Assembly: GCA_035084275.1 (NCBI GenBank)
Contig: CM068750.1
Span: forward strand, 13,888,001-13,952,000
Source: Hydrolagus colliei
Lineage: Eukaryota
Direction: 5' to 3'
Length of the DNA stretch: 64,000 bases
Both the position numbers and the translations under genes were made by a program. Shown in pieces: positions 480-37,300 of this stretch (position 1 is the first letter of the stretch; the number at the start of each line of letters is the position of its first letter). The notes under the pieces were generated by a model that made no database searches, was not told where the DNA came from, and worked only from the letters and a program-made list of their open reading frames with translations.

Positions 480-2340
480 AAAGCCAAGTGCGTTAGCAAC
501 GCCTGGAAACGTCACGCTTTGCTCAAGCCCCAAACTACACGCGGGATGGTGAAGGGGGAGAAAGAAACATTGAAATATCAATTCTAGTCGAATGCTGCCA
601 GTGAACGATACACACACAGCTCCGCACTGGGGAGAGGGCGCGATGGAGGAGGGCGAGGACAGCGGCTGAGTGTTTGGCATTGGGAGGGAGGGGGTGGGGT
701 GGGGTGGTGTGGGGGTAGGAAGGCGTGTAAATTGACCTACTCTGATTTATATAGATCAGAATCAAGGATTATTATTAATTGATTGATTGATCGATCGGTA
801 GCTGTTGTCCACTTTGAACCGCCAGTGTGTGTGTGTGTTTTGTGGGGTGGAGGGGGGGGGGGAAAGAGAGGCGAATAAGCGAGATCAGAGGGATGAGTCC
901 TCTCCATTCCTCGGATGGATATTTCTACTGTTTTCCCCCTAACCGGCGGCGGCGGCTCCGGCAGTGAGCAGAGCGGCGGCCCGGGGCAGCCACAGGGAGA
1001 TGATGGAGGCGGCGGGTCCCGGCTGCAGGGCGCGGCGCTGGCCTCACAGGCTCTGGTGCTGCTGCTGATCTTCGTGCTGTCCAGTCTGGGCAACTCGGCG
1101 GTGATCGCCGTGATCGCCAAACACCGGCAGCTGCGGACGGTCACGAACGCTTTCATCGTGTCGCTGTCTCTCTCTGACCTGTTGGCCGCTCTCCTGTGTC
1201 TGCCGTTCGCCTTCCTCACCCTCTTCAGCGGCGGCGGCGACGCTCAGAGCGGGGGAGGAGGCGGCGGAGGCTCGTGGCCTTTCGGTGACCGGCTGTGTGT
1301 GGCCAACGGCTTCTTCAACTCCTGCTCCGGCATCGCCTCCGCCCTGACCATGGCCCTGATCAGCCTGGACCGTTACTGCGCCATCGCCAGGCGGCCCCGC
1401 GCTAAGATAGGCCGGCGTCTGGCCGCCCGGCTGCTGGCCGGGGTGTGGGTGGCCGCCGCCGCCTTCTCCAGCCCCTGGTACCTGCTGCTCCGGCCCCGGC
1501 TCCCGCCCCGGCCCCGCCCGCGGGGTTTCTATCACTGCACTCACCTCTTCCACTCGGCCTCGTCCCGCCTCGGCCTGTGGTACGGACTGACCCTGATGGG
1601 CCTGGGTTACCTGCTGCCCTTCGCCCTCATGTGCTTCTGTCACTACCACATCTGTCAAGCCGCCCGGCTGTCAGAGAGGCGGGTGCGGCCTCTCGCCGAC
1701 TCCCAGTCCCAGGCTCTGGCTCAGGCCCGGCCGCTGTCACCGCCTCCCCCGCCGCCGCCGAGATTACACGGCGAGACCCGAACCGCCACCACCGTCCTGG
1801 TCATGATCGTCTTGGCGATCTGCTGCCGCGGCCCTTACTGTGTGGCGGGGATCGTGGCGGCGGCGGCGTCTTCGTCGGTGGCCGAGGCTGAGCTGTCGGG
1901 AGGTGGCGGCGGCGGCGGCTCCTCGGCCTCCCCCTCACTGATGGACGCGGTGGCCGCCTGGATGGCCTGGGCCAACGGCGCCATCAACCCGCTGATCTAC
2001 GCCGCCAGGAACCCCGACATCTGCCTCCTGCTGGGCCGGGGCCGAGCCCGGGGGAGAGGCCGGGGCCGGGAGAGCGGCTACAGGACTAGGAACCTGGCGG
2101 CCTATTTGCCCGGGGAGGGGGTGGGTGACAGGCAGAGCCGCCGAGGGCAGGTCAGGACCGACCCCGGGCAGGACACGCACAAAGACCGATACCAGCCCGA
2201 CCCGGACCGGCCCGGCCCCGGGGACCTGGCTGTGTGGGCCTGCAGGAACCCCGCGCTGCTCTTCTGCCGAGACGGGCAACGGGACACGGTGTCCGAGCCG
2301 GGGACCACGGCCAAGTCTGACTCCGCGGACACCAGCCTGT
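480..2340. promoter_or_regulatory. CpG/GC-rich island over the GPR135 5' region and CDS
   Basis: Dense CpG and very high GC in 930-2340, moderate from about 480, against AT-rich flanks. Judged by eye. Confidence 0.55.
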
Positions 2341-2342
2341 AA
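915..2342 (+). CDS. GPR135: Orphan class A GPCR GPR135, single coding exon, 475 aa
   Basis: Intact ORF with 7TM motifs: TM1 SSLGN, KHRQLRTVTNAFIVSLSLSDLL, SLDRYCAI, YLLPFALMCFCHYHIC, RTATTVL, WANGAINPLIYA, and C-tail GYRTRN...WACRNPALLFCRDG...DTSL typical of GPR135. Convergent with DAAM1 as in human. Confidence 0.93.
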   Translation: MDISTVFPLTGGGGSGSEQSGGPGQPQGDDGGGGSRLQGAALASQALVLLLIFVLSSLGNSAVIAVIAKHRQLRTVTNAFIVSLSLSDLLAALLCLPFAFLTLFSGGGDAQSGGGGGGGSWPFGDRLCVANGFFNSCSGIASALTMALISLDRYCAIARRPRAKIGRRLAARLLAGVWVAAAAFSSPWYLLLRPRLPPRPRPRGFYHCTHLFHSASSRLGLWYGLTLMGLGYLLPFALMCFCHYHICQAARLSERRVRPLADSQSQALAQARPLSPPPPPPPRLHGETRTATTVLVMIVLAICCRGPYCVAGIVAAAASSSVAEAELSGGGGGGGSSASPSLMDAVAAWMAWANGAINPLIYAARNPDICLLLGRGRARGRGRGRESGYRTRNLAAYLPGEGVGDRQSRRGQVRTDPGQDTHKDRYQPDPDRPGPGDLAVWACRNPALLFCRDGQRDTVSEPGTTAKSDSADTSL

Positions 2343-31300: not shown

Positions 31301-34300
31301 TTCCGTGCCTTTTAATAGCCAGTTAAATATCTCGGTTGATTTTGCCTCTACAGCCTTCAGGGGCTAATAGTGTTCTGTTTCATGCTCTCTGTTCAGTCAA
31401 AAGAGAAAGAACATTATAAAAGGCCTTTTAATATTGACATTCCCAGACATGGACCGACTCCGAGCCTCGTCACATGCTCTGCCAAACAGCAGAACATAAG
31501 AGCAGCTGCAGATAGTGAACGCATTTATCTGCCTGACCTACATAGCCCCAGCTCGTGACCATGACCTTCACCATGCTGTAATTTGGGGGCCAAAGAATTA
31601 CAACACGAAAAATAATCTAAAAAGAGGTCATTGAAAGAGAAACCCACGTGACGTGGAGTGGAGTTACACTTTCATTTCTGCCTCCCCTCCACCGCCCCCC
31701 GCGCCCCCCCCCCCCAAAGAAAACAAACATTTGGGGTTTTGGAGAAAGCAAATCAGTTACGTCCTGCAATAATGCAAAATAGACTCACAGGAGGAATTTA
31801 AACCATGCTGTGTATGATTTATCACCAACTCCCATTTAAGCGGGAGCTTTCAGGAACAAAGAGCAACACTGGACCAGAGGTTCATGGCTTGCAGAGCATC
31901 AATTCTTATTAAGATTATTGTTAATAATAATAATTATGCATTTGGTATAGTGCCTTTCACATCAGGAAGCTATCTCTGAACACTGCACAGGATATATATT
32001 GTAAAGTGGAATGATTGCTTTGTGGGTGAACACAATAGTTTAATAATTATTGTGTTTAATTTAGTGCCTGTAATGTCAAAATGTCTCAAAAGCTCATAAT
32101 TGATATTAAGGCTTTTACATCATGAAGCTTTAGAAGCTCAGCCGATTGCCTTTTGATGGTAGTGGGGAAAAGGCTATTGTCTTATATTCAACATAGTAAG
32201 TGTTGAATTCTTCTTAAGATTGCAGCAATTATTGTATCACTGCATCCCATACATGTGTCAGAGGCACAAAATATACAGGTCCAACAATCTGTCAGGATAC
32301 CCTGTCATTCATTCCAGCAAATGACACAAACAATAACTCTCTTCAGACAAGACATGGAACCAACATCATCACAGATTTGTGGCTGTTTGTAGGGCGTTGT
32401 TCCACACAAAATGGCTGCCATATTTACCTACAGAATGATCTATCATTACACTTTGCAGTAAATCCTGTGACGTGATAAGGCTCTATATCAAATGCAAGGA
32501 TTATTATTAATAATTCATGTATAATCCTCTAAAAACAAAGACCCTAAAGTAAAAAAAAGCCCTGTGATGCGTAAAGCTCTATTACACCAACAAAATACAT
32601 AACCAATACCCTTCACAATATATTCAATGAAACTCTACGAGACACCGTGATGTGATAAGACAGCGTATCAAATGCAACGATTATTATTATTATCGTCATC
32701 AATGGGGTTGTTGTGTGTGAAGGAAGTGAAGTATAAACCCGTACAAACCAAAAGATCTCAAGTTTAGTTGCCAGTTAACTCTCGTCAACCCAAGGAGGGG
32801 CAGGGGTGGGGTGGGAGGAAAAGAGACAGCAGTATATTTAACATGTGAACATGGAGTATTTACCTTGAGAGAAGAATATTGCAATTCTGGGCTCTTCTCC
32901 CATCGATTACGGAAAGCTCCTTGACCTTTTTGGTGGAATTTAACGTGTCTTCATTCGCTTCAGTCTCTTTCTGTGACATAAATAGAATGACAGGGGACTT
33001 GTTGGTTAAACAAGGCAAATCCATATTGGAAAAGTGCAAGCGCCAATGTGCTGTGGATTTTGCCACAAAGTTCTCCGTGACCCAGATCCCGTTGCATTTC
33101 TAGTCTCTGCACGGGCTAACAGAGAGAAGCTGACGTGCTAAAAAGAAATCTCTCCATTAGCAACATGAGATTTCCACGCGATGTTAATTAGATTAGCTCT
33201 GGAAGCACGATTCACTTTTTGCCAGAAAAACAATCCACAAATCACTGGAGTCTATTCCAGTGAGGACCGCATCAGCAGGCCGTTCGGTGACAGTGTTTAA
33301 TTACTGACATACACCCACACACAAGGGTCTGCCAGATCAATGAAGGCAACAAGCAGCGAATCCAATAATACACTGGGATGTGGTTTGTGACTGTCAGTGG
33401 AACCAGCAACCAGTGTTAGCCCCAGACATCAGTTTAATAATTTACGATTCTGGATTTCAGTGATAAAAAAACGACTTTAAACCATCTGCGTCCAGTTTGC
33501 TATTTCTATATTCCCCTAACCCTCGGTCGCAAGTCACAATGTGATGTTTTGAAAGATGCAAAAGTTCGACTGAGAAAAGCTTCAGGGCATCTGAGGATTA
33601 TTTGGCCCAATTACTGCTCCCCCACCTATAACTTGCAACACTGTGAAGGGCTTTATATGCAAAACTATTAATGAAACGTTCAAAGATTATTCAATTCAAC
33701 CGCGAGGGCATTTAGATTTTCAATAACGGACTTCAACAGGGTTAAAAACAATGAACCAGATTATAAAAGGTCTGTGAAGACAAGACACAATCGAGCATCA
33801 ACTGGGACACTTAAGTGTTTGCACTCCTCACCATTATGGCTAAAAGCGTCATGTAAATAACTACAATTAATGTTACATTTTTTAATCCATAAAACAATTC
33901 TCAAAATTCTTTTGGTATCTTTGCCAAAATTCTGAGCGCTGAAATTAACAATGACAAATGTATACTGACAGAGAGAATACAGGAACTGTCAATGCAAAGT
34001 ACACCTAAGTCTACACTGGAATAAAAAGTTCAATTTTCAAGTCATTTCATTTTGTTTGCAAGACTCATTATTATTATTAATAAGCTTCCTTTTTACTCAA
34101 AATACAAGATATGCACGTAAATCGCTGCAGAAATTTTATCTGCTGCTCATAACTTTTTCTGTACAATCCAAATCCTGGCAACAAAAGTAGCAGAAAAGGC
34201 TAAAATTGGCCTGCCAAGCCAGGGCTGTTAAGTGTCTTGGGATATCTTCCCAATGTGAAACGCACTACATAAACATAAATTTGTATTGTAAAACTGCGAT

Positions 34301-37300
34301 TGATGTATTGCAGAGGCAGCAATCTAATTTCCTTCACAAATCAGGTCAAAATCCCGAATATGTCACTAACTTTTAATGCCCTTAATATTTCAGGACAAGC
34401 GGACTTAAATGTGTGAAAAGTGCTACATGAATTAAATTGGTGGTTATTGTTGTTGCTAAAGGCTGATTCATATTGATATTTTTGATGAATAGGCATTCAG
34501 CCAAAGCTTCATTCAGTGTCATAAAGATGTTCATGCATTAGCCATTCAAATTTCAAATGGCAAATTCGGAAATGAAGCAAAATAAAGCCCCACCACCACC
34601 AGTTAGCTCTAAAGAAATAAAACTAGCTTGTGCTCTATTCCATTTTTTAAATTCCATCTTTGGATAAAGTAATTTGCAATTATCTGCAACAGAATTATTT
34701 GAAAGATTGCACTCCATTTTAATGGTGTAGCTTAAGACGGGAGAATAGAGAGGGATTCAGAAGGATTATGATTGTTTTGTAACACAGAGAATGTGGAATG
34801 TCTTTCCACAGTTTACTGTTTAGGGAGTTGAGGTCTGTAACTGTAGTTCAAAGGGAATTTGATAATGATGGGTACTGGTATGGGAATGAACAGGGCTTAT
34901 CGTTCCAGCAAGGAGTTAGTACCAGCAGAGACACTGTTGGTCAAATGACCATCTCTTTGTTGCACTTTTTCAATGGGAACAAAAACAAAATCTGTGTCCC
35001 ATTTACATCCGCGCAAGCTGATAATTTTATTATTTGTTAATCCAACATTGGACATCTTGACTACTATTAAATGCATTAATAAAATTATAATAGGCCTTGT
35101 GTTTGATTTAACCCACAATGTCGAGAATATCACAAAGCTCTTCGTAAAGATTTTGTATAATGCGGAAGTTATATTTGAAGGCGAACTCGGCAGTCGAATG
35201 TCTTATGCACAGTCATGAAGTATATTTTACATGGAGGATTGTTGTCCAAGACAATAGGAGAAACTCCAAGCTCTTCCAAATAGTGCCATGGAATCTTTAA
35301 CATCCACCTGTCTAGGCAGACAGGTATATCACGTATGAAGGACTGCATTTCCCTCAGTGCAGCACTAAGAGTGTTAGCCTTGACTGTTAGCTCAAAGTCC
35401 CAATGTGAGGCTTAAACACACAACCTTCCAACTCAGAGGCAAGAGTACTACTCACTGAGGCAGGCTGACACCTCAACTACATTGATGCATTGGCATAAGA
35501 ACGAGCGTTTATTAACAATCTTCCCCTGCACTTTACCTCCAGTTTATCAAAACTAAGCACACGCTTACCTGCTTGGTATGATTGTTCAGAAAGAAGTCCT
35601 AAAGGCAGGCCGAAGGCAAGGAGGATAACGGTAGCAACAGTTAATAGCAATAAAAACTGCAGTTCAGCAATCGTTGCAAGAAGGAAAATAAAATGGCAAA
35701 CAGAGCACAATTACACAGGCAAGGCATCATCAAAAAGAAAATGCAATTGGACATGCAGGAGTAACTAGCTAGAATGTCATCTGCAAACGTTACTCCATTC
35801 ACCAGCTCAGTGACTCAGAAGCTAAGGCGTGGCAGAGATGATTTAACTGTTGGGAGTGCTTTGGTCGAATGTTGCATTTCTCTCTTGAGTTGCAGGCAAG
35901 TTTACTTTAGAATCCATTTCTTTTTGTATTTGGGTGAGCAGTTTAAAGATCTTATTTTTACATGGTTACATAAAACCAAAATGCTTCCAACTGCAAGTGA
36001 TGTATAATTTTCTGTAAACAATTTGTGCTGGTGAAGGGGTTAAATCATTTAGATATCTCGACTATTGAGCAGTGACCACTTTACAGTAAATGATGCAACA
36101 GGCAAAGACATGCAAATCATCAGTTTTAACATTAAAAAAAGCCATTTCACAATTTCCGCAGCATCAATGCATTGTGTGATATATATTTTTTTAAAACAGG
36201 CAATTAAAGCAAAATCGGATGGTTTGGTTTCCCAATCCAAAGCGGAAGAAAATAGCGCAAACACAGGTTTAAAACAAATGAATTAAGCGAATGCACTGAC
36301 TGCTGACTTTACCCTTAGCTTTGTGTTCTCCAAACGTTACATAGCATTAGCATTATCGTTACATTATGCTGTTGTGATATATAGCACACTGAAAATGTAC
36401 TGGACAATGGACTACGTATACACATGATAAACACGACCGTCACTGCTGAACTATTGTGCTTAATGGAAACTCACATTGCACCTCTCACTCAGATATTCAT
36501 TCTGTGTGGAGAAGCATCATAAAGGGGAATTCCATAGAAATCATACCAGGGGAAACGTAAAATGTATTGGACGCAAAAGTTGCACATAAAATATCAACCC
36601 AACTCCTTCTTCTAGATACTGATCGAGCTGCCCATTCTCTCACTTTACTCTCCAATTTCTGTTACCTGTTGCCTTTGGTAAGCAGAGAATGTCTTCTCGA
36701 TCTCTTCCAAGTCAAGCACTTTGAAAACCTTGGTGTCGTCAATTTCCTCCCAGACCGTCTCCCCTAGTTTGTTCTGTAAAAGCGAGAAGAGGTTCACTAT
36801 CATGCTGTGCAAAGCACACATTAAACAAATGCATAGTTTTGTCACTGCAATTTGCTGTTTATCCTGTGAGTTATAAAAGGATTCAACAAGGTTAGAATGA
36901 ATAGGCTGTTCACCCTTTGTTTCTGTATATGACCAGTGTAAGATAATCTGTGTAAATCTACGTAAATGCTATAAAATATCCCCCCAACATGGAAAGCTCT
37001 ACAGCTAATATAAGGATTATATACATTATATAACATTTATATTCAAAGCTATATATATACATTATATATATATATATAAGCTATATATATACATTATATA
37101 ACATTTATATTCAAAGCTGCTGAAACTGAGTAGATGACCTGAACTCAGCTTCTTATCGTGCAGCTGATTCCAAATCTGCTGGAACAGCCAGAATCCCTCC
37201 ACTGCGTGCGTGATGATCCAATATTGGGAAAGTGGCCAATAGGTTACTGGAATAGAAGCTGTTGACTGTAATTCAGTCCCTTTTCTTACTTCGACTTTGC

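Follow-up and report, generated by a model that had tools for sequence, protein, structure and literature searches.

The window, by which we mean the whole 64,000-nt stretch analysed here (Hydrolagus colliei, assembly GCA_035084275.1, contig CM068750.1, positions 13,888,001 to 13,952,000), contains most of the DAAM1 gene on the minus strand. Mapped against the Callorhinchus milii protein P0091, the coding exons run from about 56640 to 16340 and are mostly 94-100% identical to it within the exon bounds; the nearest protein to the DAAM1 of the window is that of C. milii, and the two are not identical. A single-exon receptor of the rhodopsin family (Pfam 7tm_1), which is probably GPR135 judging from synteny, is located downstream of DAAM1 at 897-2342 (+). 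The region of interest is the 3.7-kb intron that interrupts the FH2 linker, and the exons mapped in and around it are as follows.

36666..36773 (-): DAAM1 exon carrying the FH2 lasso and the start of the linker (the lasso exon), 108 nt, phase 0/0, matching the human DAAM1 FH2 structures 2j1d and 2z6e; junctions mapped
35569..35598 (-): known neuronal DAAM1 microexon, 30 nt, 10 aa, identical to the insert of C. milii P0091; described in the part of PMC12056172 available to us
32864..32970 (-): next constitutive DAAM1 exon, end of the linker, from exon mapping

The 30-nt microexon is Daam1-MIC (HsaEX0018410), which the available part of PMC12056172 describes as a neural, SRRM3/4-dependent microexon of the DAAM1 linker and which is also treated in the accessible text of PMC12993246. 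According to the same part of PMC12056172, its inclusion lowers the polymerisation rate and bundling and makes the fibres longer, and linker length is a tested dial on the actin activity of DAAM1. In the upstream intron, six TGC motifs lie within 80 nt of the acceptor of this microexon (35599-35700, minus strand).

A sequence-only reading of this DNA had proposed that a second, 27-nt microexon is located between the lasso exon and the known microexon. The relevant features are listed below.

36475..36501 (-): candidate microexon, 27 nt, 9 aa (NEYLSERCN), in frame and stop-free, read from the sequence; its splicing is predicted
36502..36665 (-): 164-nt segment from the lasso exon to the candidate, purine- and AG-rich in its first 60 nt and then AG-free; it would serve as a short intron were the candidate spliced in
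36504..36602 (-): 99-nt AG-free zone ahead of the candidate acceptor, exceeding the zones of 41 of the 42 true acceptors, whose median is 37
36514..36516 (-): UGC at -15 to -13 of the acceptor, a possible SRRM3/4 enhancer, a role taken from the available part of bioRxiv 10.1101/2024.09.17.613571
36469..36474 (-): candidate donor GTGAGT, score 8.7

The earlier account was right about the gene and its known microexon, about the reading frame and about the anatomy of the splice sites. The candidate (27 nt, minus strand) is preceded by CAG, followed by GTGAGT and free of stops, and the flanking junctions are in phase 0; 164 nt separate it from the lasso exon upstream and 876 nt from the known microexon downstream, the latter distance previously given as about 880. 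The AG-free stretch before the acceptor measures 99 nt, with the last preceding AG at -103, and the UGC is found where it had been claimed, with more TGC at -74 and -83. From motifs at about -60 and -42 a branch point may be conjectured, which would place the UGC between the branch point and the AG. The candidate has the sequence properties expected of a cassette microexon, namely a length of at most about 30 nt, an AG and a GT with usable splice sites, a kept frame and no stop, together with two features of the SRRM3/4 class: a UGC near the AG, and a branch point and pyrimidine tract that are set back, as the long AG-free zone indicates. Two GT sites inside the candidate, after 13 and 20 nt, are weaker, with scores of -1.8 and 3.5. 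The confirmation applies to the sequence anatomy of the candidate, whose splicing is a prediction.

Splice sites were scored not with a standard scorer but with matrices built from the DAAM1 and DAAM2 sites of the same genome, a small set of 41 donors and 42 acceptors. The candidate acceptor and donor scored 8.9 and 8.7, compared with about 8.3 and 8.4 as the leave-one-out medians of these 42 true acceptors and 41 true donors. Among the GTs of the 3.7-kb intron the candidate donor ranked third, after two true donors, and was the best non-exon donor, and the candidate acceptor was the third-best AG of the intron. A strict filter, whose threshold for each feature was the weaker value of the candidate and the known microexon and was set after the candidate had been seen, let through only these two in 1.328 Mb searched on both strands and no site in 1.166 Mb of held-out sequence (0 others in 2.49 Mb overall). 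A looser filter passed 8 other sites in the 1.328 Mb and 9 in the 1.166 Mb, 2 and 3 of which were 6-30 nt long (5 in all). This background, which amounts to 0.77 per 100 kb, consisted mostly of 3-nt matches, several of them from one repeat. A dispersed repeat with the arrangement CAG-GAG-GTAAAT, seen in L007, L009, L016, L078, L097, L113, L119 and a further stretch upstream, is scored as a pseudo-microexon of 3 nt and accounts for a large part of the background. The matches expected by the looser filter were about 0.03 in the 3.7-kb intron, 0.3 in the introns of the gene and about 1 per window (both strands), and those expected by the strict filter in the 3.7-kb intron were fewer than about 0.005. 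Since about one loose match is expected per window, a scan of many windows will yield such sites by chance; the candidate is unusual for its intron, not for such a scan.

Two TGCATG motifs downstream of the candidate had been put forward in its support. Both are present where they had been claimed, and a third copy had been missed.

36109..36114 (-): TGCATG in the sequence, 361 nt downstream of the candidate donor
35752..35757 (-): TGCATG in the sequence, roughly 155 nt ahead of the known microexon
34532..34537 (-): third TGCATG in the sequence, roughly 1 kb past the known microexon

We take TGCATG to be the RBFOX motif. Two copies in 876 nt have a chance probability of about 0.02, and three in the intron of about 0.07. 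As support for the candidate the motifs are weak, because the nearest copy lies 361 nt past its donor and the second precedes the known microexon by about 155 nt, so that neither is assignable to the candidate. Together with the set-back branch region, the UGC suggests that SRRM3/4 would be the likeliest regulator of the candidate if the exon is real. UGC was found in 74-79% of SRRM-dependent microexons and is not strictly required, according to the available part of bioRxiv 10.1101/2024.09.17.613571.

Conservation was surveyed in 505 DAAM proteins gathered among the matches listed (the best 120 of 1,069, with at most 15 listed members per cluster), of which 430 span the linker and 75 do not. 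The candidate peptide was found in 0 of the 430 linker-spanning proteins among the matches listed, being absent there from the protein models of sharks, rays, bichir, sturgeon, gar, teleosts, coelacanth, amphibians and amniotes, and a pan-vertebrate exon was rejected on this count. At least 50 DAAM1 proteins of cartilaginous fishes, belonging to 22 named species, were included; 22 skip, 26 carry the known microexon only, 2 are C. milii models that read through into the intron and none has the candidate. Six C. milii models of the survey lack it, among which P0091 joins the lasso exon directly to the known microexon. The C. milii models P0057 and P0090 run on into the intron ahead of the next exon, apparently as artefacts of the annotation. 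Host DNA in metagenomes provided four loci, of which L064, a bird-like genomic contig with a vertebrate-type DAAM1 lasso exon that ends before the known microexon, was used and L065-L067 were left out; no counterpart of the candidate was found in the 4.7 kb after the lasso exon of L064. A protein search with the antisense frame overlapping the candidate, a route to the DNA of relatives, returned one unrelated ankyrin protein, which carries no information because such frames are rarely called. The conservation check proposed in the sequence-only reading therefore failed in the 430 linker-spanning proteins and in the one bird-like intron.

The candidate was kept out of the conserved neural microexon programme because conservation across jawed vertebrates was tested and not found. 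It is at best restricted to chimaeras, at about even odds. The survey covered proteins and one bird-like intron and is compatible with an exon that is confined to chimaeras or rarely included. Annotation can miss such exons, since the C. milii RefSeq DAAM2 model P0444 lacks a microexon whose homologue is clear in the present genome. That homologue is a 27-nt in-frame segment in the matching intron of DAAM2 (L012:8887-8913 (-), equal to G000:C3:88598887-88598913). Its peptide is similar to the linker insert of teleost DAAM2, with a score that 3 of 1,390 background peptides equal; the segment has a weak donor (score 1.7) and no UGC nearby. Linker inserts were observed in the teleost DAAM2 proteins P0148, P0151 and P0443 and in the mammal-type proteins P0463 and P0465. 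As both teleost and mammal-type DAAM2 proteins carry such inserts, the linker microexon is likely older than the split of DAAM1 and DAAM2.

A further insert in the linker was found in frogs. Fourteen frog DAAM1 models among the matches listed, from the genera Xenopus, Ascaphus, Pelobates, Hyla, Phyllobates and Pseudophryne, contain, downstream of the known microexon, a second linker insert of 11 aa in which an RR pair is conserved.

Frog models with the insert: P0331, P0349, P0351, P0353, P0355, P0360, P0408, P0412, P0414, P0415, P0469, P0471, P0476, P0480

The known microexon accompanies the insert in 11 of these models and is missing from 3, and all four combinations are annotated. Among the matches listed, the insert was not seen in salamander or other vertebrate DAAM models. 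Judging from the protein models alone, it is likely a 33-nt exon of its own, because it ends in P or L, not in a codon ending AG, and follows either upstream exon. The candidate was rejected as an orthologue of this insert on position and on score, with 135 of 1,238 background peptides scoring as well. Frog annotation thus has the four linker lengths imagined in the sequence-only reading, through a different exon, and offers a precedent for the combinatorial idea. In the portions of the literature available to us, no report was found of a second DAAM1 linker exon, of the frog insert or of the DAAM2 microexon, and the accessible part of the PMC12868881 supplement has no DAAM entry; databases and supplements may list such exons. 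The known microexon has already been described, and a second linker exon would be new if real.

The candidate likely arose from intron sequence and not from a repeat. It is single-copy, with one match in the genome in a search that skips very common words and none in 1.2 Mb of other loci, and repeats cover 0% of the 1,067-nt intron between the lasso exon and the known microexon, versus 23% over the introns of the gene. An origin in a repeat was rejected on these grounds, and a copy of either neighbouring constitutive exon was rejected with p values of 1.0 and 0.53. Among the other introns of about 1 kb, several likewise contain no repeats.

We put the probability that the candidate is a real, optional DAAM1 microexon restricted to the chimaera lineage at about 0.48. 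By our own rough estimate, if 1 of about 10 sampled lineages gained a second linker exon, about half of such exons escape C. milii annotation and about 40% pass the filter, the expectation for a real exon is about 0.02, and that for a chance site in the intron is about 0.005-0.03; a lower prior reduces the estimate. These two figures give near-even odds, in which a chance site keeps a large share and all other readings together a small one.

The most serious competitor is that an ordinary intron happens to contain a good AG and a good GT, and that the segment between them is a pseudo-exon, never or trivially spliced; we regard this as quite plausible, if short of an even chance. The silence of the protein survey fits it, as do the looser-filter rate, the occurrence, 5 times in 1.166 Mb, of AG/GT pairs in which neither site is weaker than its counterpart in the candidate, and the selection of the finding from a scan that took in very many windows. 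Such a site was, however, scarcely to be expected in this particular 3.7-kb intron by either filter, and of all introns of the gene this is the one known to contain regulated microexons.

Far less probable is that the segment acts as a non-coding splicing element, either as a decoy site or as an alternative donor. The candidate donor is strong and the lasso frame stops at 36645-36647, six codons past the lasso exon, so that use of the candidate GT as the lasso-exon donor, or retention of the 164 nt, would lead to an early stop and RNA decay; but the frame-keeping, stop-free spacing of AG and GT would then have no explanation. We likewise give little credence to a diverged tandem copy of the known microexon, whether active or decayed. 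The candidate peptide aligned to the ray form of that microexon with a score of 12 and with YLS in register, which 34 of 1,390 background 27-mers equalled (p about 0.025), and 63 of 1,390 did as well against the family mean (p about 0.045). The available part of the PMC12626424 supplement moreover gives the zebrafish daam1a microexon as 27 nt long and 209 nt after its upstream exon, a similar geometry. Against this, the peptide scored only 5 with the known microexon of its own species, no DNA similarity was detected when the two segments were compared with flanks (local score 23, shuffles 20.5 +/- 2.7, p 0.19), and that supplement lists the zebrafish exon as the orthologue of the known human exon. 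The likeness to the ray microexon is too weak to call a duplication from sequence.

If the candidate is a real optional microexon, the short upstream intron would be spliced via a branch point within the AG-free stretch. By default the exon would be left out; some cells would include it, possibly by the action of SRRM3/4 at the UGC. Inclusion would lengthen the flexible FH2 linker by 9 aa, or by 19 aa if the known microexon is included as well. If the effect resembles that of the known microexon, the longer linker may slow actin polymerisation and reduce bundling. With a second exon, the two-state switch of the linker would become a four-state one, and the pairing of a young microexon with an old one would illustrate the birth of SRRM-type exons; with the frog insert, exon gain at this site would be convergent. 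We tentatively propose, at somewhat below even odds, that in-frame microexons have arisen repeatedly in the DAAM FH2 linker, with one gained before the split of DAAM1 and DAAM2, a second gained downstream in frogs and, independently, a second gained upstream in chimaeras, so that frogs and chimaeras would have converged on four-state control of linker length and hence of formin activity. A pseudo-exon would be an ordinary finding, and a lineage-restricted exon in a non-model fish is modest in reach either way.

Comparison with described systems places the candidate closest to its neighbour. Daam1-MIC and the candidate share the gene, the linker, the interval within the intron, the kept frame, a length of 9-10 aa and a UGC before the acceptor; Daam1-MIC (35569-35598) is conserved from sharks to humans, whereas the candidate is a separate upstream segment for which neither conservation nor DNA similarity was found. 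With the SRRM3/4 neural microexons of bioRxiv 10.1101/2024.09.17.613571, as far as the available part describes them, it shares the length, the strong donor, the UGC between the likely branch point and the AG, and the long AG-free zone. Deep conservation is typical of that class, whereas it was not found for the candidate, for which neural inclusion and SRRM dependence are predictions. The frog insert differs in lying downstream of the known microexon and in its 33 nt, compared with an upstream position and 27 nt for the candidate, and the two are not significantly similar. If the candidate is real, both would nevertheless be lineage-restricted second in-frame cassettes of the same linker, the frog form being annotated alone and together with the known microexon.
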